A DNA stretch of 64,000 nucleotides. Origin: a virus. This document shows, piece by piece, positions 12,554 to 24,562 of this stretch. The stretch is from the IMG/VR virus record IMGVR_UViG_3300021962_000059, one strand, 5' to 3'. Position numbers and translations under genes: made by a program. The notes under the pieces were generated by a model. The model saw only the letters and a program-made list of their open reading frames with translations, did no database searches and was not told where the DNA came from. Position 1 is the first letter of the stretch. Each line of letters starts with the position of its first letter.

Positions 12554-12571
12554 GTATATTTACTCGTTATC

Positions 12572-13010
12572 ATTGTAGATAGATTGTAGATAGGGTGATC
12601 GACAACCGAAACCGTTACCCCGTAAAGGTTCTAGACTTTGTAGATAATGTCAATGCACTATAGAGGAAAAAAGAAGAAAGATAGAACAATAAACCAGACT
12701 GGACAATAAAAAACCGCAAGAGATAAACAAAGTCAACAGTAAAGCTGTTAGTTTGTATCTCGATTGTAGATAAGGTTATCTACAATCGAAAACCTTACAG
12801 GGTATAGGTTTCGAGGTTTGTTTATCTTGTCGATACTCTATACAGGGAAGAGAAAAGATAGAGAGAGATAAACGAACTGGACAATAAGAAAAGGATAAAA
12901 AATCTTGGCACGGGAAAATAGATCAACAATATAAACAAAGTCTAGAATCTATATATATCAATGCTTTTCAATGTTGATCACCTTATCTACAATCTATTTA
13001 CAAACCAACA
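12572..13010. repeat. Left iteron array (about two ~190 bp units, TTGTAGATA/TATCTACAA 9-mers, AT-rich TATATATA block)
   Basis: Units starting at 12572 and 12762 align at roughly 70 percent by eye. A 12 bp-arm palindrome GATTGTAGATAA-GG-TTATCTACAATC lies at 12762-12787. The array is an inverted copy of 23822-24445. Confidence 0.8.
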
Positions 13011-13019
13011 AACTATAAA

Positions 13020-13041
13020 CCCCCTATGAGTCCATAGGGGG
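13020..13041. terminator. Bidirectional hairpin terminator CCCCCTATG-N4-CATAGGGGG
   Basis: 9 bp GC-rich stem flanked by AAA on one side and TTTAT on the other. It lies 22 bp past the stop of 13063..13767. Confidence 0.6.
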
Positions 13042-13062
13042 TTTATATGGGTTTAGGTATTT

Positions 13063-13767
13063 TTACCGTTTTTTATCGTTCCGCATAAGCATTCGACCGC
13101 CTCGCCATCCCCGTGCTTTTTCCCGTTCGGTTTCGAGTAGGTTGAATTTGGCTATGTCTCGCTCTTTTTCGGCGTGTAGCTCTTCGATAACCAGACGCTT
13201 ATAGTCAATCATTGAGTTTTTACTGCTAAAGTCAGCGATCATAGTCTTTTGAGTTTTGATCAACTCCTCTAGTATTTGCTTTTCTTCGCTTAGTTTGACG
13301 ATTTGGCTCTCAAGTTGCCTTACTTCTGTAATTGCCTCGCTCTTGACGCGAAAACCAGCTAAGGTGTGAAGGAATAATCGGACTCCTAACTTAAGCACTT
13401 GAGAGGTTAACTCAGGATTATCCTTTGGCAACCACTTACAGATTAGGTCTTCTGGGATTAAATAAACCCCTTGCAACCCGCCCTCTGTTTGAATTTGAGC
13501 CTGCTTTAGTAATCCTAAGCCTAACCCTTTTGTGTTACCCCCTTGTAATCCGCTCCCTGCCTGAATTTGAGGGTGATTTGGAGATTCAGAAGTTACCCCC
13601 TTGCCATCTTCTTTAGACAGCCGGTTTAATCGCATAATGATGGCGTTGTGACTTTTCCCAGACATCCGTGCGTATCCCTTGATCGATGCGAAGCTTTCAC
13701 CAGTCTGGGTATCGATTATCAGTTCAATACCATCTTGATCAAATCGTTGTAAACTAGAAACAGCCAT
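13063..13767 (-). CDS. DNA-binding protein A: N-domain shared with 22537..23217, C-terminal coiled coil
   Basis: SSLQRFDQDGIELIIDTQTGESFASIKGYARMSGKSHNAIIMRL is near-identical to the N-terminus of 22537..23217 and looks KilA-N/Bro-N-like. The C-terminus is heptad-rich. Confidence 0.55.
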   Translation of the reverse strand: MAVSSLQRFDQDGIELIIDTQTGESFASIKGYARMSGKSHNAIIMRLNRLSKEDGKGVTSESPNHPQIQAGSGLQGGNTKGLGLGLLKQAQIQTEGGLQGVYLIPEDLICKWLPKDNPELTSQVLKLGVRLFLHTLAGFRVKSEAITEVRQLESQIVKLSEEKQILEELIKTQKTMIADFSSKNSMIDYKRLVIEELHAEKERDIAKFNLLETEREKARGWRGGRMLMRNDKKR

Positions 13768-13850
13768 ATTGACTCCTTATTAGTCTTATTGGTTAGTCCC
13801 TCGCGTCAACGAGGGCATATTAGTATTGTACCACTTTAAATAATTAATTA

Positions 13851-13882
13851 TTCCCCAATACAGAATTTTCTGTATTGGGGAA
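13851..13882. promoter_or_regulatory. Operator palindrome TTCCCCAATACAGAA-TT-TTCTGTATTGGGGAA
   Basis: Perfect 15 bp arms. It lies just upstream of the extended -10 TGGTACAAT of gene A. The core AATACAGAAnnTTCTGTATT recurs at 62623-62642. Confidence 0.6.
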
Positions 13883-14009
13883 TCTGGACACAGAAAAAAC
13901 GAGAATCAGGAAACCTATTAACAAAGATAACAAACTAATAAAACCTATATATATCAATACTTTTCACTGTCAATACCCTTGCTAACAATCTGGTAACAAT
14001 ATTAACTAA

Positions 14010-14037
14010 AAACCCGTCAATCAGTTGACGGGTTTTT
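14010..14037. terminator. Bidirectional terminator ACCCGTCAA-N4-TTGACGGGT
   Basis: 9 bp stem flanked by an A5 run and a T5 run. It lies directly 3' of 14040..14285. Confidence 0.65.
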
Positions 14038-14039
14038 AG

Positions 14040-14285
14040 TTAATTAAATTTTTCGTATTCTCTTAATATTATTTGGGTTGCCTCCTCGATTTGTTTTCCT
14101 TTTGATAGTAAGTTGAGAATTTTAGCTAGAACTTGCCTGACTCGTTCTTTACCTATTCCTAATTCTGCTGTAGTTGATGCCACTTTAAAGCGATAGTTCC
14201 GATGCCGGGAAGTGACAGGCACTGGGTCAAGATTGTTGTTTTTAGCCCACACCAGATAGATGTAAGCTTGTCTAGGAGTAATCAA
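14040..14285 (-). CDS. Small HTH protein resembling sigma-70 region 4 (81 aa)
   Basis: TAELGIGKERVRQVLAKILNLL matches the region 4.2 HTH pattern. Confidence 0.45.
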   Translation of the reverse strand: MITPRQAYIYLVWAKNNNLDPVPVTSRHRNYRFKVASTTAELGIGKERVRQVLAKILNLLSKGKQIEEATQIILREYEKFN

Positions 14286-14306
14286 AGTAATTGTCCTTTT
14301 AAAAGT

Positions 14307-14684: not shown

Positions 14685-14757
14685 TTGATTTGTCCTTTTG
14701 TGTGTTTTGTTTATATTTTTATAGTAGATCGATTTTCTTGATAGGTGTTGGTCAAGT

Positions 14758-14787
14758 GTGACAGTTTATCAAGTGACACTGCGGGTA
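14758..14787. repeat. 30 bp direct repeat, copy 1 (GTGACAGTTTATCAAGTGACACTGCGGGTA)
   Basis: 27 of 30 positions match 15075-15104. The two copies bracket the structured region upstream of terS. Confidence 0.8.
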
Positions 14788-14804
14788 TCATTGAAAATAC
14801 TTTA

Positions 14805-15022
14805 AAACTATAATCCCAATGCTTTATTAGCATTGGGATTATAGAGAACCACTAGACCAAGTGCGTGCATTAGCTATCTACTATTTCAAGATAGTTACTG
14901 GACTTACACCAGCAAGCTTAGAACGACTTGTTAACCAGTCTCACTAGCCGACTACTATTTCAAATCGGTTGCTGATCTACCCAGTAGCTTATGGAGTCTC
15001 TAATTAATGGATGCACTCGGTT
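14805..15022 (-). ncRNA. Candidate structured ncRNA (~220 nt) antisense-upstream of terS
   Basis: A 16-position closing helix (15022-15007 with 14880-14865) has 14 pairs, including one G.U that exists only on the minus strand. Two hairpins share the loop UUGAAAUAGUAG. The 3' end is a 16 bp hairpin followed by UUUUAAAGUAUUUUC. The promoter is weak or unclear. Confidence 0.4.
14808..14844 (-). terminator. Perfect 16 bp hairpin CTATAATCCCAATGCT-TTATT-AGCATTGGGATTATAG
   Basis: A U-run follows it only on the minus strand. Confidence 0.55.
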
Positions 15023-15074
15023 TACTGTCCATATTCTAAATATATCATGATAATTTTCAGATAGTTGGCGAAGA

Positions 15075-15104
15075 GTGACGGTTTATCAAGTGTCACTGCG
15101 TGTA
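15075..15104. repeat. 30 bp direct repeat, copy 2 (GTGACGGTTTATCAAGTGTCACTGCGTGTA)
   Basis: Second copy of 14758-14787. Contains the inverted pair GTGAC-N12-GTCAC. Candidate pac or TerS-binding site. Confidence 0.8.
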
Positions 15105-15339
15105 CTTTTGTACTGGACTGATTGAATATCCGATTTATTACTGATTTTCAGTATATTTGGTTGTTTTACGTTCGTTCTCGTTGATTATTGATACTGAGAA
15201 TATTGTTAAGCATTTTTAACTATCATAAAGGTTTTTTCCTTTAGAACAATTTAATTTTGTCGGTTTATTTTTTGGTTGCACGGCACAAAAGCTGTCATTT
15301 TGGCATAATATTGATTAATCGAGATTATATCTTAATTTA

Positions 15340-16029
15340 ATGCCAAGACGAAAAAAAGCATCACCAAATAACTCAACCTCGACACCTAAAAGTCCTGTGT
15401 CAGGCAAAGTTAGTCGGTTTGATAATCTAATACCAAACTCACCTATCGAGTTTGGTCACTATCCTATCTGGGAAAGACAGCCTTGCGAAATGTCTCAATG
15501 GTTTGAAAAATTTCAAGCTTTTTACATTCATCTTCCTGCGGGGTACAGAACATTAAATCGTGCTTTCAATGATTGCGCTACGTCGGCAGGCGAGGAGATT
15601 CCAAAGACTGAAAGTAAGCGCAATATTACCGCACCAGAACAATGGCAATTAGCTTATAAAATGTATCGATGGGAGGATCGAGCTAAGGCGTATTGGCTTA
15701 AAAAGATACAAGATCAAGAGGCTTATAGAAATGAAATCCTAAACCAAATAATAGATAAAAGCATAAAGAATGCTTTTAAAACACTCGAAAAAAGCGAGGA
15801 GATAAACAATCGTTCACTGGACGATCCTAACGGCAATTGGAGTCATAAAGACGCTGTAATTATGACTAAAGCTGTCACTGAAATAGTAGAAAAAGCATTA
15901 GGGCTTGACACTGTAGAATATGCTATTAGTATTTTACAAAAAAATGGGTTAAAAGCAATTGATCCTGACGGGAACTTAATAGGACAGCCAACAGATAAGG
16001 GTAATTCAGAAGATGAAACTATCTTATAA
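15340..16029 (+). CDS. terS: Terminase small subunit
   Basis: Basic N-terminus. The segment FEKFQAFYIHLPAGYRTLNRAF...WQLAYKMYRWEDRAKAYW resembles a common TerS HTH/W-R-A motif. It overlaps terL by 17 nt. Confidence 0.6.
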   Translation: MPRRKKASPNNSTSTPKSPVSGKVSRFDNLIPNSPIEFGHYPIWERQPCEMSQWFEKFQAFYIHLPAGYRTLNRAFNDCATSAGEEIPKTESKRNITAPEQWQLAYKMYRWEDRAKAYWLKKIQDQEAYRNEILNQIIDKSIKNAFKTLEKSEEINNRSLDDPNGNWSHKDAVIMTKAVTEIVEKALGLDTVEYAISILQKNGLKAIDPDGNLIGQPTDKGNSEDETIL

Positions 16030-18889
16030 AAATCTCTCAAAGATAAAAACAGCAACCGAAAAATATCGACTTGTTAACACCAAAGAAGAAATTGTTTTTC
16101 CTCAATTACAAGAGGGAAAACAAGCTTTATTTGGAACAATTGATGCTGATGTAATCTTCTATGGCGGAGGCGCAGGAAGTGGAAAAGCAGGACGTGCATC
16201 CAAGACAGGAAAAGCGATTCGAGATAAAATGCTTTCTATGGCGGATGCGCTTTTAGGGAAAAAACTATTATCATATAATAGTAGTTTTAATGAATCGCAA
16301 ATGAAAGATTCAAAGGTCTTGGGATGGAGTGGTCAATGGATTGACTTCTCTGATCTTAAAGTCGGGGATAAGATTATGAATCCTGATGGCCAGTATCAAG
16401 AAATCATCCAAATTCATGAACAGGGATTCAAACAATTTTATCGGGTTTCTTTTGAAGACGGTACAAGTACAGAATGCTGTGGTGATCATTTATGGTCTTT
16501 TTGGGAATCTCGCCGTAATAGCCGCAGGAAGTCTAGTAATGGGATTAATCGAATTGAGTCGAATCTGACACCTCGAGGATGGAATACTAATTACATTACA
16601 AGAGCAAGGGTTAAGGATACTAATTGGTTGATTACTGAAATTAGTAAAGGAAGACGATTTATTATTCCAATTAACGCGCCATTGCAATTTACGGCACTCA
16701 ACAGGTCTGATACTGGCAGAGCCTATTTTTATGGTTGTTTAATAGGTGATGGTTCTTATTGTAGTGATTCAATTGTCGTAACAACTTCTGATAAGTTTAT
16801 TGCTGATAAACTTGTTGATATTTTAGGGAAAGAAGCTACTGTTAAAACACGAACACCAATAAAAGATGACCGCTTAGAAGTTTTATCCGTCAATGCGACA
16901 AAAGTTCAATGGGTTAAATCTTGGATAAGCAACAATGAATATAAAGGAAAAAGAGCGTGGGAAAAAGTATTTCCCGACGGCTATTTATCAGCATCTCTTG
17001 ATTTTCGTTATGCGTTTGCTCAAGGTCTTTTTGATACAGATGGAACTGTTGGAGATAAAAAAAGAGAAGTCTCCTATTGCACAACCAGTAAAGATTTGGC
17101 TATTCAGGTAGCTTCTTTGGTTCGTTCTTTGGGTTATATGGCTAAGATTACGGAAAGACAACCAAAATATAGATACAAAGGGGAACATTTAGATGGTCGT
17201 ACGGCTTACGTTGTGGCTGTTGAGGGAAATCATCTTGAATTACTTTTTAGTTTGCCGCGTAAAGTTAAACGAGCGAAAATACTTGGACAATTCAATGGAG
17301 GATCAAGTTGGCCGGGTAAAAGAATTGTTTCTATTGAACCAACTGAAATTGATTACGCTCGTTGTATTACTGTTAGTAATCCAAATCATCTTTATTTAAC
17401 AGACGATTATATAGTTACGCATAATAGCTTCGCATTATTAGCCGATTTTGCCCGTCAAGAATTTGTCAGCAATCCTGACTATCGGGCTGTTATTTTTCGC
17501 CGGACTTACCCTGAATTTACTCAAGCGGGCGGTTTAATAGATGAAAGCCAAAAAATCTATCAGGCAATAAAAGGCAATTTTATCGAAAAACCTCCGGGGT
17601 GGCGATTTCCATCTGGATCAAAAATAGCTTTTAGGCATTTACAATACGAAAAAACTGTCTATGTTTATCAAGGGGGGCAAATTGCAAAAATAGGTTTTGA
17701 TGAATTGACTCACTTTACAGAAGAGCAGTTTTTCTATCTTCTCTCTAGAAACCGATCTGTATCAGGGATTAAACCAGCAGTTAGAGCAACTTGTAACCCT
17801 GACGCTGACTCTTGGGTAGCTAGTTTTATCTCTTGGTGGATCGACCCTAAAACTGGGTATGCTATCGAGGAAAGAGCGGGAATAGTTAAATATTTTATTA
17901 GGCAAGGGGGCGCGGTTCATTGGGCTGACAGTAAACAAGAATTAATTGATAAGTTTAGTCTTAAAGATGAACTTTTTGATATTATCCCTGATGATAAAAA
18001 AGAAAAGTTTTTATCAGATACAGATGTAAATATTACACCAGATAAACTGATCAAAAGTTTTACTTTTATTCCTGCTACAATCTTTGATAATCCAGCTTTA
18101 ATTAGAGTTAACCCTACCTATTTGGCTAACCTTTACGCTTTACATCCTATTGAGCGGGAAAGACTTCTCAGGGGTAATTGGAAGATTAAATATGAATCTG
18201 GCACTGTATTTGATCGGACTTGGTTTGAGATACTCGATAAAGTACCCGATGATTGGAGACTAATAGGTAAGGTGAGGTTTTGGGATTTAGCGGCAACTGC
18301 TAAAGAGAATGCTGAAAACTATCACTGTTATACCAGTGGCACTCTTGTTTATAAGTATCAAAGAATTAAAAATACACTGCCAGATTCAACTGAGATTAAA
18401 GAATTTGCTTATGTGATTGCTGATAATATCTGTGAGCAGAAAAAGGTCGGGGAAGTGGAGTTAATGCTCAAAAATACTGCTGAATTAGATGGTAGAACCG
18501 TAGCCGTAAGATGGGAACAGGAAGGGGGATCGAGCGGTAAATTTGTTGAAAATACGATTACTAATGTAATTAGGGAAAACCACCCGAACCATGATGTTAG
18601 AGCTATCGCACCTCAAGGGGATAAACTCACTAGGGCTTTACCCGTAGCAACGGCGGCTAGTAGAGGACAAGTCTTTATCTTGAGAGATGGGATATGGAAT
18701 ACTCGATTTTTAAATGCTTGTCAGGGTTTTGATGGCAGTAAAAAAACACCCCCGACTAACGATATTGTGGATAGCTTATCAGGGGCTTTCTATTCTCTTG
18801 AAAATGAGTTTCAGGGACATGAGGAGGTTATTAGTGCGATTGTTACTAATATTCCCATTAATCGGTTTAGGGGCGGTTTTAGTCGCTAG
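16013..18889 (+). CDS. terL: Terminase large subunit, interrupted by an intein in the Walker A P-loop
   Basis: The exteins rejoin as YGGGAGSGK|SFALLADF (Walker A). Also present: Walker B IGFDELTHF, RATCNPD, and a C-terminal nuclease region. The mature protein would be about 545 aa. Confidence 0.85.
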   Translation: MKLSYKNLSKIKTATEKYRLVNTKEEIVFPQLQEGKQALFGTIDADVIFYGGGAGSGKAGRASKTGKAIRDKMLSMADALLGKKLLSYNSSFNESQMKDSKVLGWSGQWIDFSDLKVGDKIMNPDGQYQEIIQIHEQGFKQFYRVSFEDGTSTECCGDHLWSFWESRRNSRRKSSNGINRIESNLTPRGWNTNYITRARVKDTNWLITEISKGRRFIIPINAPLQFTALNRSDTGRAYFYGCLIGDGSYCSDSIVVTTSDKFIADKLVDILGKEATVKTRTPIKDDRLEVLSVNATKVQWVKSWISNNEYKGKRAWEKVFPDGYLSASLDFRYAFAQGLFDTDGTVGDKKREVSYCTTSKDLAIQVASLVRSLGYMAKITERQPKYRYKGEHLDGRTAYVVAVEGNHLELLFSLPRKVKRAKILGQFNGGSSWPGKRIVSIEPTEIDYARCITVSNPNHLYLTDDYIVTHNSFALLADFARQEFVSNPDYRAVIFRRTYPEFTQAGGLIDESQKIYQAIKGNFIEKPPGWRFPSGSKIAFRHLQYEKTVYVYQGGQIAKIGFDELTHFTEEQFFYLLSRNRSVSGIKPAVRATCNPDADSWVASFISWWIDPKTGYAIEERAGIVKYFIRQGGAVHWADSKQELIDKFSLKDELFDIIPDDKKEKFLSDTDVNITPDKLIKSFTFIPATIFDNPALIRVNPTYLANLYALHPIERERLLRGNWKIKYESGTVFDRTWFEILDKVPDDWRLIGKVRFWDLAATAKENAENYHCYTSGTLVYKYQRIKNTLPDSTEIKEFAYVIADNICEQKKVGEVELMLKNTAELDGRTVAVRWEQEGGSSGKFVENTITNVIRENHPNHDVRAIAPQGDKLTRALPVATAASRGQVFILRDGIWNTRFLNACQGFDGSKKTPPTNDIVDSLSGAFYSLENEFQGHEEVISAIVTNIPINRFRGGFSR
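16187..17425 (+). mobile_element. Intein (413 aa) with a double-motif LAGLIDADG homing endonuclease
   Basis: Starts at Ala59, right after the GSGK lysine, and ends ...IVTHN|S. Block B reads GDHLW. LAGLIDADG motifs YGCLIGDGSY and AQGLFDTDGTV. Block F reads RCITV. Confidence 0.8.
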
Positions 18890-19067: not shown

Positions 19068-19095
19068 AAATCCTCGTTAATAGTTGTAAAATATC

Positions 19096-19374
19096 CTAAT
19101 CGATTTGATTTACTAGGGATTCTCGGTAAAGTCTTTCACGCTCTATCCAGAAACGAGCAGAAGGTACGCCTAAAGCTAACTCCATTTTGTAGGCAATACG
19201 GATAGTAATTTCTGCTTTACCTTTTATGATTTGATTGATAGTCTTTTTTGGCAACCCCATTCGATTGGCAAATTCAGTTCTAGTTATTTTTCTTTCCTTT
19301 AGGATGCCAGCAAGGGTTTCTCCTGGTGGAGAAACCCAATCGGGTGTAAATCTGTTCTCAATAGTATTAGTCAT
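19096..19374 (-). CDS. higA: HigA-type XRE-family antitoxin-like HTH protein
   Basis: PPGETLAGILKERKITRTEFANRMGLPKKTINQIIKGKAEITIRIAYKMELALGVPSARFW matches the HigA/VapI antidote pattern. Confidence 0.65.
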   Translation of the reverse strand: MTNTIENRFTPDWVSPPGETLAGILKERKITRTEFANRMGLPKKTINQIIKGKAEITIRIAYKMELALGVPSARFWIERERLYRESLVNQID

Positions 19375-19377
19375 GAA

Positions 19378-19920
19378 TTAATCTTCGTTATGTAAAAAAT
19401 CGTGAACAAAATAATTGACAACTTTGATAGCCTCTTTAGTTTTTGGGATAAAATCAAGGTCTAAAGCAATAAAAACAAAAGGGTCTTTTGTTTTTATTGT
19501 ATTTTCTAGCTTGTGAAAACAAGATATATCTAATAATAAAATATCTCCTGCTTTTACTGTTAGTCTTTGAGTGTCTTTTCTGCGAACTAACAGATTATCT
19601 ATTTGTTTATTGGGAATACTAAAGTAATCTGTTTTTAGGAGTTTTTCTATTTTTTTATTATTTACTGGGGATGCGTAAAGTTCATAACGATCACTTTCAA
19701 TAACTAAAATAATTGAGTATTTTCTGTCATCATTAATGTCATCGACGTGCCATTCTACTCCTAGCGTCCCCCATAAAGCATGAGAGTAATCGGACATATC
19801 ATAGAGAGGTGTCACATAATTATGTCTTATAGGAAATTTGACAGTAAAACAAGGATTATTTGCTATTTTGCTTAGATTGTCTAGATTATGGTATTTACCT
19901 AGTTTATGCAAAGATTTCAT
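19378..19920 (-). CDS. Cupin / 2OG-Fe(II) oxygenase-like protein (180 aa)
   Basis: Has an HxD...H arrangement (EWHVDD ... VKAGDILLLDISCFHK) typical of the double-stranded beta-helix fold. It ends 3 nt before the higA-like start. Confidence 0.4.
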   Translation of the reverse strand: MKSLHKLGKYHNLDNLSKIANNPCFTVKFPIRHNYVTPLYDMSDYSHALWGTLGVEWHVDDINDDRKYSIILVIESDRYELYASPVNNKKIEKLLKTDYFSIPNKQIDNLLVRRKDTQRLTVKAGDILLLDISCFHKLENTIKTKDPFVFIALDLDFIPKTKEAIKVVNYFVHDFLHNED

Positions 19921-19938
19921 TTTTTTGTTTGGTTGAGG

Positions 19939-19968
19939 ATTACTAACTGATAACTGGTAACTGATTAC
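19939..19968 (-). repeat. Phased heptamer repeat leader
   Basis: Minus strand reads TCAGTTA CCAGTTA TCAGTTA GTAATCC ... ATG 19920. Confidence 0.85.
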
Positions 19969-20462
19969 CTACCAAATAAAAAAGATGCAGCGCCAAGTAA
20001 ATACACCCATTCTTCTTCAAGCATTAATTCCGTTTTAGAAGGATCAGCTATATCAAATAAACAAAAGTCAACTTCATCTATACGATCACCGTCGTAATAT
20101 AACTCAATATCAGTTTCTGGAAATACTGTCATAAAGCTAAATTTAAATACGGCATCTTGACGATTCTCGCAAGTTAATGTAGCTGAATGACTTGGATTTT
20201 CCCACGGAATACGATCTCTAAAGTTTTGATAGGTTACTTTTAACTTCCAGTCAATAATTGAGGGAAAATCTTCTTTAAAATGATTTTCCTTTACCCATTT
20301 AGCAATTTCGTCTATTATCCATCCTTGATCCTTTTGGATAAAATAGTGAATGCCCTCTGAATATCGAAACGGATAAATTAACTTTGTTTCGTACCAGTCC
20401 AACTTAAATTCTTGCGGTTCCGATTTTATCTTAGGAAATTGTCCTATGTCTATTATTGTCAT
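19965..20462 (-). CDS. DUF6876-like protein (165 aa), distant paralogue of 20520..20858
   Basis: YPFRYSEGIHYFIQKDQGWIIDEIAKW parallels YPFEYTDGIKYLAENGGAYWLLDAIASW in the neighbour. Confidence 0.45.
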   Translation of the reverse strand: MTIIDIGQFPKIKSEPQEFKLDWYETKLIYPFRYSEGIHYFIQKDQGWIIDEIAKWVKENHFKEDFPSIIDWKLKVTYQNFRDRIPWENPSHSATLTCENRQDAVFKFSFMTVFPETDIELYYDGDRIDEVDFCLFDIADPSKTELMLEEEWVYLLGAASFLFGR

Positions 20463-20482
20463 AATTTTTACTCCTAATTTTT

Positions 20483-20518
20483 TACTGATATCTGATAACT
20501 GATTACTGATAACTGAGA
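20483..20518 (-). repeat. Phased heptamer repeat leader
   Basis: Minus strand reads TTCTCAG TTATCAG TAATCAG TTATCAG ATATCAG TAAAAAA TTAGGAG ... ATG 20462. Confidence 0.85.
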
Positions 20519-20519
20519 A

Positions 20520-20858
20520 TTAATATTCACTAGATAGCAACAAAACACCGTCATACAACCAAAGCGTGACCTCTGGAATAGGAAAATCGGTAAATGGTAT
20601 CTGCTGAGTTACAACAAGTCCATCGTCTTGTTCGCAGCTAAGAACTGCCGAGTTATCGGCATTAACTATCAGCATCCAAAACTGAATCTGGCTTGAATCA
20701 AGTTCTTTTTGCCATGACGCAATGGCATCAAGCAACCAGTAAGCTCCTCCATTTTCTGCTAAATACTTGATGCCGTCAGTGTACTCAAATGGGTAATTTT
20801 TATTGCGGTAATAGTTTTCAGTACCCGTAAAATTGCTAAGATTTTCTAGTTTGTTCAT
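20520..20858 (-). CDS. DUF6876-like protein (112 aa)
   Basis: FTGTENYYRNKNYPFEYTDGIKYLAENGGAYWLLDAIASWQ matches my recollection of the DUF6876 signature seen on plasmids and phages. Confidence 0.5.
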   Translation of the reverse strand: MNKLENLSNFTGTENYYRNKNYPFEYTDGIKYLAENGGAYWLLDAIASWQKELDSSQIQFWMLIVNADNSAVLSCEQDDGLVVTQQIPFTDFPIPEVTLWLYDGVLLLSSEY

Positions 20859-20880
20859 GATTTTAGTCTCCTAAATAATT

Positions 20881-20932
20881 GTTAGCTGACAACTGATTAC
20901 TGATAACTGATTACCGATAACTAATAACTGCT
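20881..20932 (-). repeat. Phased heptamer repeat leader (longest, about 7 units)
   Basis: Minus strand reads CAGTTAT TAGTTAT CGGTAAT CAGTTAT CAGTAAT CAGTTGT CAGCTAA CAATTAT TTAGGAG ... ATG 20858. Confidence 0.9.
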
Positions 20933-20934
20933 AT

Positions 20935-21207
20935 TTAGTCAGGAATACCATACCCATCTTCAAACCGTCCAGCGATCTGCTCATCAATCCATTGTCTTAT
21001 TTTTGGTGACAACTCAGCCACCGTAATAATCGGAGGCAGATTTAAATCAGGATAAAACATCACATAGTATTGTTCAATGCTTTTAAACGCTGGCCAAGGC
21101 AATACATCTTCATAGATAGTTAAAACTGTCAGTATGTGTTTTGAATCAACAACAAGAGCAACTTTGCCTGTGTTTGGAGAGATGCCTTCAATACGAATAC
21201 CTTTCAT
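20935..21207 (-). CDS. Hypothetical protein (90 aa)
   Basis: Intact ORF with a heptamer leader and a TTAGGAG SD. Confidence 0.5.
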   Translation of the reverse strand: MKGIRIEGISPNTGKVALVVDSKHILTVLTIYEDVLPWPAFKSIEQYYVMFYPDLNLPPIITVAELSPKIRQWIDEQIAGRFEDGYGIPD

Positions 21208-21230
21208 TTTTTTGACTCCTAAATAATTGT

Positions 21231-21260
21231 TGGCTGATAACTGATAACTGACAACTGATA
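21231..21260 (-). repeat. Phased heptamer repeat leader
   Basis: Minus strand reads CAGTTGT CAGTTAT CAGTTAT CAGCCAA CAATTAT TTAGGAG ... ATG 21207. Confidence 0.85.
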
Positions 21261-21262
21261 TA

Positions 21263-21754: not shown

Positions 21755-21784
21755 TTGGGAGTGGTCGTCTTTCTCTATATCTGT

Positions 21785-21814
21785 ATATTACAATCATACT
21801 TGTAATATTGTCAA
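21785..21814 (-). promoter_or_regulatory. Sigma-70-type promoter CTTGACAATATT-N-TAATAT
   Basis: -35 TTGACA (21814-21809), 18 bp spacer, -10 TAATAT (21790-21785). The same GAATTGTCAAG-type box reads TTGTCA on the plus strand, toward the cro-like gene. Confidence 0.5.
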
Positions 21815-21867
21815 GGGGTATTCCAAAAAAAGTTATAATAAATATATCGAGTGCAAAAACTAATACA

Positions 21868-22071
21868 ATGGTACTAAAAAACAGGGTCAAGGAATTTACG
21901 GAGAACAAAGGTATTACGATTTACAAGTTTGCTAAAGATGTAGGCATATCCTTTAATACGGGGTATAGATTATCAAATGATCCGACTCACTTACCCTCTA
22001 TTACTGTCTTAGAAGCAATCTGTGATTATTATAAGGTCGATCCTAACGAAATTATCTATCGCATTGATTGA
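21868..22071 (+). CDS. Cro/CI-type XRE-family HTH regulator (67 aa)
   Basis: Start moved to the internal ATG (MVLKNRVKEFTENKGITIYKFAKDVGISFNTGYRL...), giving a typical XRE HTH protein. Confidence 0.6.
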   Translation: MVLKNRVKEFTENKGITIYKFAKDVGISFNTGYRLSNDPTHLPSITVLEAICDYYKVDPNEIIYRID

Positions 22072-22091
22072 AAGTGTGATATGCTAGTAAA

Positions 22092-22164
22092 GCGGGGTGA
22101 GTGAAATGGTTTCCACATAGGCCTCATAAGCCTAAAACACTAAGTTCGACTCCTAGACCCCACA
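22092..22164 (+). tRNA. Degenerate tRNA-like gene, anticodon CAU (Met or Ile2 type)
   Basis: The cloverleaf can be drawn: acceptor GCGGGGT/ACCCCAC (C2-A71 mismatch), a D arm with GG, anticodon stem TAGGC/GCCTA with loop CTCATAA, and T arm CTAAG-TTCGACT-CCTAG (one mismatch). G replaces U at position 8, and no CCA is encoded. Confidence 0.4.
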
Positions 22165-22168
22165 CTAA

Positions 22169-22462
22169 TTAAACAAAATCCCAATTAAGAGAATTATTAA
22201 ATTCTTGTATATCAGCAAGGGCTTTTTCCCCTGATTGGGTAATCCGATAGTATCTTTTTCTAGCACCGCCTCTATCGTTAGATCGCTCGGTTCCCCATCG
22301 GGATTTAATGAGTTCTTTTTCCTCTAATTTCTGGAATACAGAGTAAAACAAGCCAATATCAAGGCTTTTACCTTTAATATCAGCTATAGATTGAATTATC
22401 TGCAATCCTGATAATTCTTTATTGTAAAGAGTCCGCAAAACAAGGATTTCTTTAGGTCTCAT
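22169..22462 (-). CDS. PadR-family transcriptional regulator
   Basis: LSGLQIIQSI...LFYSVFQKLEEKELIKSRW...GGARKRYYRITQSGEKAL is the PadR winged-helix pattern. Confidence 0.7.
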   Translation of the reverse strand: MRPKEILVLRTLYNKELSGLQIIQSIADIKGKSLDIGLFYSVFQKLEEKELIKSRWGTERSNDRGGARKRYYRITQSGEKALADIQEFNNSLNWDFV

Positions 22463-22536
22463 CTAAATATGGTATAATATTGATACGCCCCCGCGTTAAC
22501 GGGGGACTAACCACAATTACTACTACACAGTAAATC

Positions 22537-23217
22537 ATGACTGATTCTAGTTTACAGCGTTTTGATCAAGATGGTATCGAACTGATTATCAATACCGAGA
22601 CTGGCGAAAGCTTTGCTACGGTGCGAGGATATGCCCGTATGTCTGGAAAAACACACACAACAATTTTACGGCGTTTAAAGGTGGTAACACCCGATGTTTT
22701 AAATCATGCTCAAATCCAGACAGCAGGCGGGCTACAACAATCAATGCTAATACCTATTAATATTGTTACGTCCATGCTTTTAAGTGATTATAATCAGACG
22801 CCAACGCAAAAACTATTTGAGTCTTTAGTGGCAATTTACAAGCATCAAGGGTTAGATACCAGTGGTTTTAATTTACACAATTTTAACAAAGATAAATCAA
22901 GGGTTTTAAAAGTCCGTGACAGAGAAAAGCAAATACAATTGGCTTATCAATCAAAATATGGGGGAGTAATAGAACATTCTACCGCTAACGGACGAATAGA
23001 TCTACTTACCGACACTACGATTTATGAGTTTAAATCGTTTAAAAATTATAAAGATTGCTTAGGTCAGCTACTTGCTTATCATGACTGCATCCCTGAAGCT
23101 AAACTTGTAGCTGTTTTATTTGGTGTACCTAAAGCAATAGCCTTTAATAGTCCAGAATGCAATCGGATAAAATCCTTGTTAAATAAATACGGAATTACAG
23201 CCGAATTTTTACGTTAA
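22537..23217 (+). CDS. DNA-binding protein B: N-domain shared with 13063..13767, C-terminal PD-(D/E)xK nuclease-like domain
   Basis: The N-terminus SSLQRFDQDGIELIINTETGESFATVRGYARMSGKTHTTILRRL matches gene A. In the C-terminus, GRIDLLTDTTIYEFK...QLLAY fits a D...ExK nuclease core. Confidence 0.55.
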   Translation: MTDSSLQRFDQDGIELIINTETGESFATVRGYARMSGKTHTTILRRLKVVTPDVLNHAQIQTAGGLQQSMLIPINIVTSMLLSDYNQTPTQKLFESLVAIYKHQGLDTSGFNLHNFNKDKSRVLKVRDREKQIQLAYQSKYGGVIEHSTANGRIDLLTDTTIYEFKSFKNYKDCLGQLLAYHDCIPEAKLVAVLFGVPKAIAFNSPECNRIKSLLNKYGITAEFLR

Positions 23218-23258
23218 CTGGGTCTATCGTGTTTCAATTGCGAAAACTCTACCCTAGA

Positions 23259-23303
23259 GGAACAAATCGAGTTAATGGGGGGATATTAGGCAAAAGCAGT
23301 AAA
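23259..23303 (+). repeat. 45 bp direct repeat, copy 1, flanking higA-2
   Basis: GGAACAAATCGAGTTAATGGGGGGATATTAGGCAAAAGCAGTAAA. Copy 2 at 23594-23639 is identical except for one extra A. Confidence 0.85.
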
Positions 23304-23327
23304 ACTGGTACATAAAGGAGTATAAAC

Positions 23328-23624
23328 ATGGTTCGCACACCTACCCATAGAAGACCCACCCATCCGGGTGAAATGCTGAACGAGGAATTTTTAAAGCCGA
23401 TGGGCATCACACAGAGTCAACTCGCTGATGCGATTGGGGTTCCTTACCAGCGAATTAATGAAATTGTCAACCGTCGCCGGGGGATTACCCCTAGCACCGC
23501 TTTAAGACTTGCTAAATACTTCCAAGTCTCTCCTGATTTTTGGTTGAATCTTCAAACCCGATTGGATTTGTTTGACACTAAACAGAAAGAGGGGGAACAA
23601 ATCGAGTTAATGGGGGGATATTAG
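23328..23624 (+). CDS. higA: HigA-family antitoxin-like HTH protein (98 aa)
   Basis: HPGEMLNEEFLKPMGITQSQLADAIGVPYQRINEIVNRRRGITPSTALRLAKYFQVSPDFWLNLQ is the canonical HigA antidote signature. Confidence 0.75.
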   Translation: MVRTPTHRRPTHPGEMLNEEFLKPMGITQSQLADAIGVPYQRINEIVNRRRGITPSTALRLAKYFQVSPDFWLNLQTRLDLFDTKQKEGEQIELMGGY

Positions 23625-23639
23625 GCAAAAAGCAGTAAA
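23594..23639 (+). repeat. 45/46 bp direct repeat, copy 2 (includes the last 10 codons of higA-2)
   Basis: See copy 1. Copy 1 encodes an orphan ...EEQIELMGGY* tail with no start codon. Confidence 0.85.
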
Positions 23640-23708
23640 TAAAGTTATTTACTGCTAAAATAAAAGGTACTTGAAATTGACATCATAATTGATAACTGAT
23701 AAAACCAA

Positions 23709-23736
23709 CCCCTGTAGGGACTACAGGGGTTTTTTA
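23709..23736 (+). terminator. Rho-independent terminator CCCCTGTAG-GGA-CTACAGGGG plus T6
   Basis: 9 bp GC-rich stem followed by TTTTTT, downstream of higA-2. Confidence 0.75.
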
Positions 23737-23741
23737 TTGCC

Positions 23742-23820
23742 TAATGTTCGGAGCTTAGTGGGTAATGTTCGGAGCTTAACAGCTTAATGTTCGGAGCTTA
23801 GTGGGTAATGTTCGGAGCTT
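23742..23820 (+). repeat. Four direct copies of TAATGTTCGGAGCTT at 21-22 bp spacing
   Basis: Copies at 23742, 23763, 23785 and 23806, all exact. Confidence 0.9.
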
Positions 23821-23821
23821 G

Positions 23822-24445
23822 GCTAGTTTGTTAGATTGTAAATAGATTGTAGATAAAGGTATTTACAATAGAATCCTTGATATATATAGATTTCAGACTT
23901 TGTTTATATTGTTATCCCTATCCCTGTGTCAGGATTTTTTGTGTTTTTATTGCTGACCTCGATTAATTAGATTGTTACTTTGTAAATAGATTGTAAATAA
24001 GGGTATTAACAAAAATAGAAAAGATGAAAGTATTGATATATATAGCTTTTATCATTTTTTTACCTCTTTGTTTATATTGCTCATAATTACCCCGTGTGTA
24101 TTTTTTTTGCTTTACTGTTGAGATTGTTGTTTTTTTTTATTGCTGACTTTGTTTGATTTCTTTGTTTTTCTCTCCTCCCTATAAAGCATCAACAGTATCT
24201 ACAAAGTCTAGAACCTAGACAGGGTAAGGATTTTGATTGTAGATAAGCTTATCTACAATCAATCACAAAAAGAACAGATTAGTGATGAAACACTTTTATT
24301 GCTGACTTTGCTGTATATCTTCTCTTTTCTTTCTTTTCCTCTATAAAGCATCGACAATATATACAAAGCCTGAAACCTATATCTAGCAAGAGTTTCCGTT
24401 GTCGATAACCTTATTTACAATCTATCTACAAACTACAATCGCTCT
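23822..24445. repeat. Right iteron array (inverted counterpart of 12572-13010)
   Basis: Contains a perfect 26 bp palindrome GATTGTAGATAAGCTTATCTACAATC at 24235-24260, multiple TTGTA[AG]ATA / TATCTACAA 9-mers and TATATATA blocks. The reverse complement of 24330-24420 aligns with 12590-12670. Confidence 0.8.
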
Positions 24446-24477
24446 GTAGTATTTGTAATATATGTAATACAGATAGA

Positions 24478-24508: not shown

Positions 24509-24562
24509 ATCCACAGTGAATCTTCTTAAAAATTCTCTCACAGTCTTAATAGAATTGTCAAG

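Follow-up and report, generated by a model that had tools for sequence, protein, structure and literature searches.

In a 64,000-nucleotide stretch of DNA (IMG/VR record IMGVR_UViG_3300021962_000059, hereafter the window), from an uncultured freshwater phage whose host is probably Microcystis, two inverted, non-coding repeat arrays bracket the terminase genes, and each lies beside one of two related genes, labeled A and B. What do these arrays do? An earlier note had proposed replication origins with their initiators, centromere-like partition sites, or the ends of an invertible module. That interpretation is partly supported by the analysis below.

Organization of the arrays

The left (12561–13015) and right (23824–24445) arrays are, as had been claimed, mutually inverted non-coding copies of one repeat family, with 65–67% identity. 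An ORF scan found no reading frame of 50 amino acids or more in 12455–13062 or in 23625–24689, and indels of 1–2 nt between the arrays of relatives rule out a coding function. A repeat search linked the two regions through inverted pairs of 86–115 nt with 71–80% complementarity (e.g. 12573–12681 with 24323–24431), and in a whole-array alignment the reverse-complemented left array is colinear with units R2–R4 of the right array.

The 9-mer TTGTAGATA, allowing at most one mismatch, has 55 matches in the window, against 25.6 ± 5.6 expected from 100 shuffles, none of which reached 55. The two arrays (∼1.7% of the window) hold 20 of these matches and 11 of the 14 exact sites, in both orientations, confirming the clustering noted earlier; each carries 7–12 sites across 450–620 bp, spaced 11 bp in tandem and 13 bp when inverted. 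The long palindromes and AT-only blocks were also correctly described, the AT block TTGATATATATAG / CTATATATATCAA being found at 12949, 13946, 23877 and 24033. The fixed unit of ∼190 bp was not recovered, the spacing varying between 144 and 190 bp. Overall array GC is 0.29–0.34 (window, 0.37), and the most AT-rich part is a 40-nt stretch at 24004 (GC 0.15), a value reached by only 0.4% of windows. The 15-mers with a 21–22 bp period beside the right array (Table 1) were missing from the earlier note.

Within each array, cores of ∼100 nt are arranged convergently, those on one side pointing right and those on the other pointing left. A core carries a triad, in which two 9-mers lie 11 bp apart on the same helical face, followed 13 bp on by an inverted third; the second and third jointly make a palindrome of 22–26 bp. 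The triad is followed by a box that distinguishes two classes, TTGATATATATAG in class I and TTAC-N3-GTAA-AGG in class II, and a fourth 9-mer-like box lies beyond it. In core L1, the triad gives way to a TTACCCCGTAAAGG box, beyond which come the fourth 9-mer (12638) and then CTATAGAGGAAAA. Paralogous cores are only ∼60% alike overall, yet the 9-mers and boxes are conserved. The class-specific boxes disrupt the complementarity of facing arms, and selection therefore does not favor a hairpin or cruciform. As judged from sequence, this grammar (11-bp tandem, 13-bp inverted, perfect 26-mer) is typical of protein binding.

Table 1. Coordinates of the arrays, adjoining genes and associated signals in the window.
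Feature	Position	Strand	Remarks
Outward sigma-70-type promoter, TTGACT-17-CATAAT	12489..12517	-	consensus score 10/12; ∼55 bp beyond last 9-mer of left array; serves leftward LPD29/ParB_N operon
Core L1, class II	12561..12672	+	tandem 9-mers 12573, 12584; degenerate inverted site
Core L2, class II	12741..12852	+	contains 26-bp palindrome 12762–12787 (12-bp arms, GG centre)
Core L3, class I, reversed	12905..13015	-	AT block CTATATATATCAA; tandem 9-mers 12984, 12995
Intrinsic terminator of gene A	13014..13047	-	15-bp stem
Gene A, 234 aa	13063..13767	-	Bro-N-like N-domain, Gly/Gln-rich insert, conserved helices, coiled-coil tail
Gene A leader	13790..13833	-	extended -10 TGGTACAAT 13825–13833; 5′ hairpin CCCTCG-N6-CGAGGG 13798–13815; then GACTAACCA 13790–13798
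Degenerate class I core	13905..14011	-	upstream of gene A promoter; AT block kept, 9-mers decayed
Gene B leader	22470..22513	+	extended -10 TGGTATAAT 22470–22478; hairpin CCCCCG-N6-CGGGGG 22488–22505; then GACTAACCA 22505–22513
Gene B, 226 aa	22537..23217	+	Bro-N-like N-domain aa 1–105; probable PD-(D/E)xK aa ∼126–226
3′-end remnant of ancestral 172-aa coiled-coil paralog (…LEEQIELMGGY*)	23240..23295	+	compared with intact gene end in L001, L010
Inserted HigA-like HTH gene	23328..23624	+	HTH_3 2e-13; phrog_1381
Bidirectional intrinsic terminator	23707..23731	+	closes gene B / HTH unit
Four exact 15-mers, TAATGTTCGGAGCTT	23742..23820	+	variable-number tandem repeat, only at right array's inner edge; 1–7 copies among relatives
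Core R1, class I	23824..23930	+	
Core R2, class I	23968..24085	+	includes GC 0.15 stretch
Core R3, class II, reversed	24170..24282	-	contains perfect 26-bp palindrome 24235–24260, GATTGTAGATAAGCTTATCTACAATC
Core R4, class II, reversed	24335..24445	-	outermost; faces 24690–27747 operon

The adjoining genes

Genes A and B are paralogous (BLASTP 2e-28). Their close similarity at the N-terminus stands, but the ∼80% identity estimated by eye over the first ∼50 residues comes to 74% (35 of 47). The leaders align as described, sharing an extended -10, a GC hairpin and GACTAACCA; the folding energies of the hairpins are -14.5 (A; z = -2.8) and -13.7 kcal/mol (B). The mirror-symmetric layout, with the 3′ end of each gene facing its array, is confirmed, and many relatives conserve it; the terminator of gene A insulates the left array from cassette read-through.

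The shared N-domain, modeled with AF2 at pLDDT 88.5, looks like a divergent Bro-N/KilA-N(APSES)-like fold, in line with the DNA-binding role proposed earlier: a structure search returned Bro-N and Ant matches in BFVD (E 1e-4 to 1e-3) and Mbp1 as top match in the PDB (probability 0.91). Searches of Pfam, PHROG, NCBIfam and PDB sequences gave no match for gene A; its coiled-coil tail is present as predicted, and its homologues match coiled-coil Pfam families and bear coiled-coil-type source names. For gene B, the C-terminus is probably a PD-(D/E)xK nuclease domain, since it has an invariant E...D...ExK...Q motif and a modeled alpha-beta-beta-beta-alpha-beta order typical of these nucleases. Motif and model thus agree with the earlier assignment, while Pfam matches are sub-threshold only. 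Gene B is also a mosaic bordered by a 37-bp exact direct repeat, with one copy in the paralog remnant (23259–23295) and the other (23594–23630) providing the last codons of the HigA-like HTH gene, which is missing in three relatives (L001, L010 and L070).

Exchange of genes beside the arrays

Among relatives, the same type of leader drives a canonical Bro-N, a Phage_pRha or another N-domain with diverse C-termini; in all, 62 leaders precede four N-domain types and at least seven C-terminal forms. The gene-A slot may hold two tandem paralogs or a canonical Bro-N protein, whose domain is unrelated in sequence and whose first ∼10 codons are shared. The left array beside a swapped slot is nonetheless ∼87% identical, with core order and 9-mer sites unchanged, and other arrays adjoin a Phage_pRha gene or no cassette whatever. 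The predicted recognition helix also differs between paralogs adjoining similar arrays, which weighs against a regulatory reading. Since that helix varies and an unrelated Bro-N stands beside the same 9-mers, the neighboring protein is not necessarily the cognate one, and the earlier idea of matched protein–site pairs is weakened.

Comparison of these sequences shows that the adjoining antirepressor-like genes have been duplicated, swapped and rebuilt at the arrays. Arrays and leaders recur as homologous sequences at several places in the genome, and therefore act as recombination substrates too. Contig ends fall at arrays in 28 of 68 cases, against 13.4 expected (p = 4e-5).

Such plasticity would also suit functionless arrays, either decaying duplicates of cassette upstream regions or a selfish MITE-like repeat, persisting as hotspots for cassette gain, loss and swap. 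Consistent with this, class I cores match sequence ahead of cassette promoters, and post-core sequence resembles the cassette upstream region (CTGTGTCAGGATT vs CTGTGTCCAGATT); the hypervariable cassette content, the excess of contig ends, the variable number and positions of arrays, and a minimal form that is an inverted-repeat element of ∼250 bp point the same way. However, neutral decay would not preserve the 9-mers, the 11/13 bp spacing and the class boxes in cores only ∼60% alike, and these are preserved across 114 contigs. The left–right colinearity predates the divergence of these phages, no target-site duplication is visible at minimal pairs, no transposase was found, and the repeat is absent from the cellular genomes scanned (185,579 species genomes, Microcystis included) save one mis-binned phage scaffold. 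A functionless relic is accordingly quite unlikely.

Arrays in related phages

Such arrays are present in 114 stretches of IMG/VR. Relatives have 2–4 of them, and the copy number extends down to 1. Orthologous arrays are 73–89% identical, against 65–67% for left versus right. In the genome studied here, a third array lies 5.5 kb beyond the window end within a divergent promoter region, so that the pair described earlier is real but not the whole set.

This contradicts a two-end picture, in which the arrays would bound an 11-kb segment that inverts or recombines in some other way. The inverted repeats that bracket the block, the frequent breaks of assemblies at arrays, and one divergent lineage in which the 24690–26422 gene block is flipped relative to the terminase could suggest such a segment. 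However, a single orientation is seen in all of the ∼40 loci that cover an array together with its two flanks, no recombinase was found in the block and no invertase or resolvase in or near it, and 65–67% identity is poor for homologous recombination. Flipping would moreover point the outward promoters and cassettes inward. Inversion is extremely improbable.

Partition (centromere-like) or packaging (pac) sites are highly improbable. Direct and inverted repeated sites at several loci resemble the sites of omega protein or ParR, a ParB_N protein is encoded at 10277, and the arrays bracket the terminase genes. However, the ParB_N protein has only 117 aa and lacks an HTH or other DNA-binding domain, the ORFs scanned included no ParA, and the scan of 185,579 species genomes revealed neither a plasmid or prophage form nor a copy of the repeat in any sequenced host genome. 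As for packaging, distances of 2.3 kb and 5 kb separate the arrays from the terminase genes, and the intergenic region beside the small-terminase-like gene bears its own distinct repeats. In addition, the terminase is retained by an array-poor lineage in which the left array is reduced to a single promoter-proximal triad and the right one is missing.

A possible regulatory role

The arrays are located 55–160 bp upstream of predicted promoters, called by consensus alone, at the start of transcription units. At the third array (L170:4060–4215) and in relatives L007 and L097, the left array's combination of class II core, ∼55-bp spacer and promoter type is seen again. L007 has one core ahead of each of two tandem cassette promoters, both paralogs being preceded by intact equivalents of the degenerate core upstream of gene A, and in relatives the promoter of the pRha cassette has an array ∼110 bp upstream, where tail genes meet a long leftward unit. 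In the array-poor lineage, whose surviving triad is the promoter-proximal one, the cassette leader bears a single 9-mer placed exactly between -10 and hairpin, in two contigs whose downstream ORFs differ; the fragments recovered retain A/B-type and Rha-type genes, and genes for HTH_26, HTH_3, PadR and an 81-aa protein were undetected in them. Because the arrays head major transcription units beside swappable antirepressor-like genes, they are most likely regulatory platforms and recombination hotspots, a reading I favour over an invertible or partition module. I tentatively suggest that they are cis-acting, operator/enhancer-like elements with multiple putative protein-binding sites, heading the main transcription units and cassette genes. 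A sequence-specific dimeric or oligomeric protein would bind the triads cooperatively and set the activity of promoters at a distance of 55–160 bp, so that several units would switch at once. The Bro-N-like proteins encoded beside the arrays would be the leading candidates, with coiled-coil tails that could oligomerise and so bridge sites or arrays.

Against this regulatory role, the window has no 9-mer that overlaps a -35 or -10 hexamer, the sequence from the right array to orf 24690 yielded no assignable promoter, and more distant A/B-family homologues are found where there is no array. The helically phased repeats, AT-rich block and extra 21–22 bp repeats also fit an origin.

Replication origins, 2–4 per genome, are a serious rival explanation, in which the 9-mers would serve as iterons bound by a phage initiator or by host DnaA, and the AT block an unwinding element possibly activated by neighboring promoters. 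The short repeats are phased and in both orientations, a 13-bp AT-only block is conserved, the 15-mers flank the right array, and the arrays sit at intergenic boundaries beside promoters. Multi-site origins have precedents in SPP1 (oriL/oriR), P4 (ori/crr) and T4. TTATCTACA is one mismatch from the E. coli DnaA box; the 9-mer is, however, two mismatches from the cyanobacterial box TTTTCCACA. The only recognisable replication gene, a primase/helicase (59335–62220), is 35–40 kb from the arrays, and the genes beside them are antirepressor-like, not initiator-like. Copy numbers of both the array and the 21-bp repeat vary, down to the single triad of the array-poor lineage, array GC is near that of the window, and GC skew turns track gene-strand changes, not arrays. 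An origin function is unlikely, though it is a rival to be taken seriously.

The binder could also be a host regulator, either an OmpR-type response regulator such as RpaB, whose sites are called HLR1, or DnaA in the role of a transcription factor, and phage transcription would then be tied to the physiology of the host. The HLR1 half-site is (G/T)TTACA(T/A)(T/A), arranged as direct repeats, and cyanophage genomes are reported to contain HLR1 motifs (PMC6525291). The reverse-complement 9-mer, T(C/T)TACAA(T/A), resembles this half-site, and the arrays are unchanged where the neighboring phage gene is swapped. However, the HLR1 period is 10 bp, against 11 bp here, and the commonest 9-mer mismatches a core T in that half-site. 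Head-to-tail repeats are what OmpR-type proteins bind, whereas the array sites include perfect palindromes, and the tandem motif was not found in the host genomes scanned. A host regulator is thus very unlikely.

Returning to the regulatory platform, classical operators are much smaller than these arrays, a difference that counts against it. An analogy, for arrays beside Bro-N-like genes, is provided by the hr/bro regions of baculoviruses.

Organization of the repeat arrays

The two arrays are non-coding, as had been claimed from the sequence: no ORF of 50 amino acids or more is found in 12455–13062 or 23625–24689, and 1–2 nt indels between the arrays of relatives exclude coding. They are also, as the earlier note stated, inverted copies of a single family. 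A repeat search of the window identified arm pairs of 86–115 nt with 71–80% complementarity (for example 12573–12681 with 24323–24431), and the left array, once reverse-complemented, is colinear with three of the right array's four units, at 65–67% identity. The 9-mer TTGTAGATA, which had been singled out for its many copies, is present 55 times in the window with at most one mismatch, against 25.6 ± 5.6 expected, a number that no shuffle reaches; 20 of these matches, and 11 of the 14 exact ones, fall within the ~1.1 kb of arrays. Both palindromes were found as described, the one at 24235–24260 being a perfect 26-mer. The proposed unit of ~190 bp did not hold as a fixed length, as the spacing of the array units ranges from 144 to 190 bp. 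An extra, degenerate unit is located upstream of the gene A promoter.

Within the arrays, tandem neighbouring 9-mers are 11 bp apart and inverted neighbours 13 bp apart, and the 11-bp spacing occurs only as pairs, with inverted copies mixed in. Binding of the arrays by a host regulator is very unlikely. The RpaB HLR1 site was rejected on its period, and the NtcA site on its spacing, read from the sequence.

The structure of the core was derived from an alignment of twelve units, taken from the window and its relatives. It consists of a 9-mer, 2 nt, a second 9-mer, ~4 nt, an inverted 9-mer and ~12 nt, followed by a second box, ~10 nt, CTTTGT(A/T)(G/T)ATA and TGTTGAT, for ~100 nt in total. In class I cores (R1, R2, L3, the core upstream of gene A, and those upstream of cassette promoters in relatives), the second box is TTGATATATATAG; in class II cores (R3, R4, L1 and L2), a small dyad, TTAC-N3-GTAA-AGG, is followed by CTATAGAGGAAAA. 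The 9-mers run '+ ... + - ... -' in every array of all loci examined, so that class I cores are opposed to class II cores, with a pyrimidine-rich spacer containing TTATTGCTGAC between them. The class-specific boxes disrupt the complementarity of the facing arms, indicating that selection acts on the boxes, and not on a hairpin. A long RNA or DNA hairpin was rejected, since the arm pairing is interrupted by these boxes, and an Rfam scan of 11.5–25.5 kb returned only the tRNA, with nothing in the arrays.

Whole arrays have a GC content of 0.29–0.34, versus 0.37 for the window; each class I core includes a 13-bp AT-only block, and one 40-nt stretch has a GC of 0.15. The 15-mer TAATGTTCGGAGCTT, repeated at the inner edge of the right array, is absent from the rest of the window and is found in 1–7 copies in relatives, at the right array only. 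It may represent iterons of the classical kind, or a repeat prone to slippage. A per-column conservation track over 31 right and 51 left arrays was uninformative, because the orthologues are too alike and deletion lineages distort it; the comparison of paralogous cores was informative.

I conclude that the arrays make up a cis-element system that is genuine, conserved and unusually elaborate. Counted here as observed are the grammar of the sites, the division of the cores into two classes, the convergent layout, the number of copies and their conservation.

Coordinates of the features discussed in the text (window positions, unless a contig or residues are indicated)
Feature	Position	Remarks
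Left array	12561–13015	Cores L1, L2, L3
Right array	23824–24445	Cores R1–R4
Third array	L170:4185–4440	Window's own genome, ~5.5 kb beyond window position 64000
Gene A	13063–13767 (−)	234 aa
Gene B	22537–23217 (+)	226 aa
Gene B C-domain elements (AF2)	Residues H126–141, E144–149, E152–157, E161–167, H168–184, E189–195	
Extra degenerate unit	13905–14011	
Four exact 15-mers TAATGTTCGGAGCTT	23742–23820	21–22 bp period; between gene B terminator and right array
LPD29-heading promoter	12489–12535 (−)	
Further promoters of this type	L007:11330–11400, 11700–11790	
Promoter-like site and hairpin	24478–24561 (−)	
Perfect palindrome	14001–14044	20-bp arms
Intergenic region before small-terminase-like gene	14685–15339	Divergent
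41-nt repeat pair	14747–14787, 15064–15104	85% identity
33-nt repeat pair	14868–14900, 14942–14974	
Large terminase	16013–18889	958 aa
81-aa gene	14040–14285	Central block
HTH_3 gene	19096–19374	Central block
HTH_26 gene	21808–22071	Central block
PadR gene	22169–22462	Central block
Match to MaMV-DC	18889–20031	83% DNA identity
Match to Microcystis plasmid	~20.7–20.9 kb	85%, DUF6876 gene
Heptamer runs	19922–21259, 23685–23702, ~63780–63850	CTGATAA / ATCAGTT
tRNA-Met (CAT)	22092–22165	
37-bp direct repeat	23259–23295, 23594–23630	Exact
HigA-like HTH gene	23328–23624	
Primase/helicase	59335–62220	
Distant gene B homologues, leader	L151:5900–6000, L153:5920–6000	
Mom-family gene	L057:9019–9669	Pfam Mom, 1.6e-44

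Distribution of the arrays and phage genome context

The window corresponds to the final 64 kb of a 90.9-kb metagenomic contig, in reversed orientation, and encodes an intein-containing large terminase, ribonucleotide reductase, thymidylate synthase, a primase/helicase, tail and lysis genes. The terminase is only 42% identical to that of the closest isolates, and DNA matches to the region are short, and come from Microcystis phages (MaMV-DC, with 83% over 1.1 kb) and from a Microcystis plasmid only. The MaMV-DC match spans a hypothetical gene and an XRE/antitoxin-like gene; together with the plasmid match, it points to recent gene exchange among Microcystis elements. Heptamer runs are found in short intergenic gaps, and the same 7-nt repeat has been described in the Microcystis phage Mic1 and in the Microcystis aeruginosa genome (PMC7156551), which supports Microcystis as the host. 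Mic1 is of similar size and style, yet is a different phage, and two terminase inteins have been reported for it (PMC7156551). In the window, the terminase intein includes a LAGLIDADG homing endonuclease, and the terminase of one relative (L001) is intein-free, at 549 aa. A tRNA-Met gene lies in the central block, flanked by the HTH_26 gene on one side and the PadR gene on the other.

The tandem 9-mer pattern was identified in 114 IMG/VR stretches, all from freshwater samples. Among 185,579 species genomes, a tandem 9-mer array is present on a single scaffold, of 86.5 kb, mis-binned into a Crocinitomicaceae MAG, and the remaining matches are single and by chance. The pattern is therefore a phage feature, and neither a host repeat nor a common prophage. 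No arrays and no close homologue of A or B were found in isolated phages or plasmids, the sole isolate match being a weak N-domain similarity in Anabaena phage A-4L, which does not have an array; primers and unrelated sequences were all that a full-text literature search with the 9-mer brought up.

Three arrays are found on large contigs, with four on one of them; the third array of the window's own genome lies beyond the window, and the fourth array of a relative (L146) is in the divergent intergenic region before the small-terminase-like gene. Orthologous arrays are 73–89% identical, versus 65–67% for left against right, indicating that the array duplication predates the divergence of these phages. 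Contig ends are over-represented at arrays (28 of 68, with 13.4 expected; p = 4e-5), a usual effect of repeats and variable cassettes on assemblies. It is rather unlikely that the arrays are functionless relics, or selfish repeats serving only as recombination hotspots. MITE or transposon ends were rejected: there is no target-site duplication at the minimal pairs, there are no host copies, and array positions are largely conserved among relatives.

The mirror-symmetric layout of genes and arrays put forward in the earlier note is confirmed, with two clusters in mirror orientation around a block rich in small HTH regulators. Its further suggestion, that the arrays are the ends of an invertible segment, is extremely improbable, as a single orientation is seen in all ~40 loci spanning an array and both flanks, and no recombinase domain was found among the genes of the block, including in precomputed Pfam matches. 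A role as partition or packaging sites is highly improbable. The ParB_N protein, which had prompted the partition proposal, has only 117 aa and does not include the DNA-binding part; no ParA was found among the ORFs scanned, which are part of the ORFs of the genome; and there is no sign of a plasmid or prophage state, as the mis-binned phage scaffold is the only tandem 9-mer array in the species genomes. A pac site was rejected because of the long distance between the arrays and the small-terminase-like gene, and because the intergenic region of that gene contains repeats of its own, distinct from the arrays. These repeat pairs are themselves candidate pac or regulatory sites, judging from the sequence.

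Position of the arrays relative to promoters

The strong outward promoter TTGACT-17-CATAAT, called by its consensus, heads a leftward operon comprising LPD29, ParB_N and later genes, and the end of the left array lies 55 bp upstream of it. At the third array, where a class II and a class I core form a minimal pair within a divergent intergenic region, this module recurs, with a class II core, the spacer GAACGTTTGTACTAAGTATATTTACTCGTT, and then the same promoter type; on the other side of this array, a promoter-like TTGACA-17-TAAGAT is seen by eye ~85 bp past the class I core. In relatives, two tandem cassette promoters each have one class I core 130–160 bp upstream, and the promoter that drives a Phage_pRha gene has an array ~110 bp upstream, at a site that, from the gene order on large contigs, corresponds to the end of the tail genes and the start of a long leftward gene run. 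In at least four units or cassettes, the promoter has triads 55–160 bp upstream, and terminators stand between genes A and B and their arrays, which indicates that the arrays mark the heads of the main transcription units. No promoter could be assigned between the right array and orf 24690.

The recurrence of short dyad or tandem sites at a number of promoters is as expected of an operator or upstream-regulatory site cluster. My tentative reading, to which I would give somewhat less than an even chance, is that the arrays are upstream regulatory platforms controlling the adjacent promoters. A dimeric or oligomeric protein would bind the triads cooperatively and control the neighbouring promoters; the best candidates for this would be the Bro-N-like proteins, whose coiled coils could bridge sites.

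Other elements were noted around these promoters. The LPD29-heading promoter type is repeated before each LPD29 paralog, and includes by eye an inverted repeat, TCCCA ... TGGGA, within TTATCCCAGATAGTTGACTTTATTGGGAGAA around the -35, which may be a separate operator. Beyond the right array, a minus-strand promoter-like TTGACA-18-GAGAAT with a TG is directed into the array, with a hairpin and T-run seen by eye ~25 nt further on the same strand; together these could produce a ~45-nt RNA. A similar -35 region (CTTGACAATTCTA) drives an outward gene at the third array. Finally, a perfect palindrome (ATTAACTAAAAACCCGTCAA / TTGACGGGTTTTTAGTTAAT), conserved in relatives, between the 81-aa gene and the degenerate core, is likely a bidirectional terminator.

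A lineage with few arrays

One lineage, represented by at least four contigs from different samples (L039, L057, L096 and L097), retains only the outermost triad, beside the LPD29-type promoter. A 466-aa gene replaces gene A and the remainder of the left array, and the right array is not present in these contigs. The cassette leader in this lineage reads TATAAT-AATATCTACAAG-hairpin, placing one 9-mer at the expected transcription start; this is seen in two contigs, whose downstream ORFs differ, and the leader variant of the lineage is shared by L163. By its sequence, this leader appears to tie the 9-mer to promoter control. The HTH_26, HTH_3, PadR and 81-aa genes of the central block were undetected in these fragments, while A/B-type and Rha-type genes are still present, which makes the cassette proteins slightly better candidates for the 9-mer binder than the small HTH proteins. 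The block replacing the small regulators includes, in L057, a Mom-family DNA-modification gene.

This lineage also bears on the proposal that the arrays are replication origins, which is on balance unlikely. The phased repeats, the AT block and the 21–22 bp repeats would suit an origin, but the arrays are largely missing from this viable-looking lineage, and their copy number varies. Moreover, the primase/helicase is 35–40 kb from the arrays, and no initiator gene lies at the repeats, where the neighbours are Bro-N-like, Bro-N or pRha genes, or no cassette at all.

Leaders and cassette shuffling

The leaders of genes A and B align as had been described, with an extended -10, a GC hairpin and GACTAACCA, and their hairpins fold at -14.5 and -13.7 kcal/mol respectively. 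Across loci, 62 leaders represent 23 sequence variants, which differ in their loops, while compensatory change of T-A to C-G preserves the stem. In relatives, this same type of leader drives a Pfam Bro-N protein in the gene A slot (E 3e-21), a Phage_pRha protein at the third site (E 3e-15), and a fourth N-domain type. The Bro-N replacement retains the first ~10 codons of the A/B genes, which places the recombination junction inside the ORF. The locus is a clean case of gene shuffling, showing how DNA-binding heads and effector tails can be exchanged in a phage by means of flanking repeats and a portable leader of promoter and hairpin. I count this cassette shuffling, the positions upstream of promoters and the N-domain fold described below among the observations.

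The N-domain of genes A and B

Genes A and B are paralogous (BLASTP 2e-28), with 35 of the first 47 residues identical, against the ~80% estimated by eye in the earlier note. Neither gives any match in Pfam, PHROGs, NCBIfam or PDB sequences; their N-domain has no match to Pfam, PHROG or NCBIfam models at E up to 0.1, and its profile is not significantly similar to a single Bro-N (with hhalign) or pRha sequence. A homology search identified 139 relatives, in which the shared N-domain is joined to differing tails: a coiled-coil form of 172–175 aa, forms of 234, 266 and 281 aa, a KilAC/ANT form (PF03374, in homologues P0076 and P0078), and the gene B form.

An AlphaFold (AF2) model of N-domain residues 1–108 is confident, with a pLDDT of 88.5 and a pTM of 0.81. 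It consists of three strands, a helix-turn-helix, a beta hairpin and two helices; the beta strands, helix-turn-helix and beta-hairpin wing of this predicted model are those of the Bro-N/KilA-N (APSES) fold. The top PDB structure match is the yeast Mbp1 APSES domain, with a probability of 0.91 but an E of 0.095, and among BFVD predicted structures, many Bro-N, Ant-N and 'repressor domain' proteins match with E of 1e-4 to 1e-3 and TM of 0.5–0.65. The N-terminal position and the interchangeable C-modules (coiled coil, nuclease and others) are those of the superfamily, and the cassette slots of relatives are filled by PF02498 or PF09669 proteins. As modeled, the A/B N-domain is a Bro-N/KilA-N superfamily member only in its fold and architecture.

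More distant homologues (P0021, P0044, P0094 and P0102) do not have arrays, and possess their own promoter and 5' hairpin. For distant gene B homologues of other phage lineages, on L151 and L153, a promoter and nested 5' hairpin (GCCGATCGGGATA...TATCCCGCTTAACATCGGC) are conserved, with no arrays. A structured 5' leader thus seems to be a trait of the family.

Gene B, a mosaic with a predicted nuclease domain

Gene B had been proposed to possess a PD-(D/E)xK-like nuclease core. The motif agrees with this and the topology of the predicted model fits, but matches to family models are only sub-threshold. Residues E13, E29, D38 (GRIDLL), E47-x-K49 (YEFK) and Q60...Y64 of the C-domain are invariant across 10 diverse homologues, and provide the E...D...(D/E)xK motif and downstream Q/Y helix of this fold, and the AF2 topology of the C-domain fits alpha-beta-beta-beta-alpha-beta. 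In Pfam, only PDDEXK_9 (0.0067, in one of 10 members) and UPF0102 (0.13) were found, both below threshold, and a PDB profile search with the C-domain returned nothing relevant. The full-length two-domain model of gene B was uninformative in Foldseek, with EcoO109I, BbvCI, XisH and CdiA-CT only at E above 0.08, while the N-domain modeled alone gave usable matches. The fusion of this N-domain to a PD-(D/E)xK-like domain is unmatched by the Pfam, PHROG, NCBIfam or PADLOC-independent models scanned.

Gene B is followed, within 23240–23630, by a relic of the 3' end of a coiled-coil gene. A 37-bp direct repeat flanks the HigA-like HTH gene, and both copies correspond to the 3' end of the ancestral coiled-coil paralog (…EQIELMGGY*), indicating that the nuclease tail of gene B and the HTH gene are later insertions.

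Comparison with known systems

The Bro-N, KilA-N and Rha 'antirepressor-like' genes are among the commonest of those phage genes that are not known to have any DNA target or role. In 2002, Iyer and colleagues reportedly described the KilA-N/APSES/Bro-N proteins of DNA viruses as variable N-terminal DNA-binding domains fused to KilAC/ANT and other C-domains. The A/B proteins resemble these in the fold type of the N-domain, in having homologues fused to PF03374 ANT/KilAC, and in that this domain is positionally interchangeable with Pfam Bro-N and Phage_pRha domains; they differ in that the existing Pfam, PHROG and NCBIfam models miss their N-domain. With a divergent Bro-N-like member beside conserved, defined candidate sites (the 26-bp palindrome and the 9-mer triads), a simple binding test is possible, and the arrays offer defined candidate DNA targets for a very common and poorly understood class of phage proteins.

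In phage lambda, two inverted clusters, OL and OR, bracket the immunity region and are bridged by the repressor. As in these, the P1 C1 operators and the mycobacteriophage L5 stoperators, short repeated candidate regulator sites are found here at several loci, and as in lambda, mirror clusters surround a block of small HTH regulators, with promoters firing outward. By analogy, looping between the clusters is plausible. However, the arrays are far larger (7–12 sites over 450–620 bp), lie upstream of the promoter hexamers and not over them, and have two core classes and extra boxes; the clusters are 11 kb apart.

The PeSL cassettes of T4-type phages are units of an early promoter and a stem-loop that mediate modular gene shuffling. 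The leader described here, though not the arrays, is similar: a portable promoter and GC hairpin is repeated before different swappable ORFs, its stem is kept by compensatory change, and the recombination junctions are just inside the ORFs. Unlike in PeSL, the hairpin comes after the promoter, where the transcript has its 5' end, and the cargo consists of antirepressor-like genes only. SPP1 oriL/oriR and P4 ori/crr are sites bound by an initiator (G38P or alpha) encoded at or near one of them. There, as here, one repeat family is found at two distant sites with an AT-rich stretch alongside, but the neighbours here are Bro-N-like, pRha or no cassette, with the primase/helicase 35–40 kb off.

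The nearest functional analogy would be the hr/bro arrangement of baculoviruses, whose hrs have enhancer or origin activity. In both, several dispersed arrays per genome are built from imperfect palindromes; these intergenic arrays adjoin a multigene family with a shared Bro-N-type N-domain and variable C-termini; and their neighbourhoods are recombination-prone and differ between strains. The phage considered here is, in contrast, a tailed phage of a cyanobacterium; its repeats are made of 9-mer triads set in ~100-nt cores, which fall into two classes, and its N-domain fails the Pfam Bro-N model and matches by fold only. There is no sequence relationship to hr/bro, nor is lambda OL/OR or T4 PeSL a sequence relative.

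A bolder proposal, and a decidedly unlikely one, would make the coiled-coil Bro-N-like proteins and the arrays parts of a system encoded by the phage to organise its genome, the prokaryotic equivalent of hr/bro. By binding the triads and bridging the three arrays, the proteins would fold the ~91-kb genome into loops matching the three transcription units, and the sites would double as enhancers, possibly as origins, and as recombination points diversifying the bro-like genes. 

Should the heads of the three transcription units be under the control of the arrays, as in the regulatory platform reading, the arrays would be the main regulatory switchboard of a widespread lineage of uncultured, bloom-associated freshwater phages, and a striking parallel to the hr/bro regions of insect viruses.
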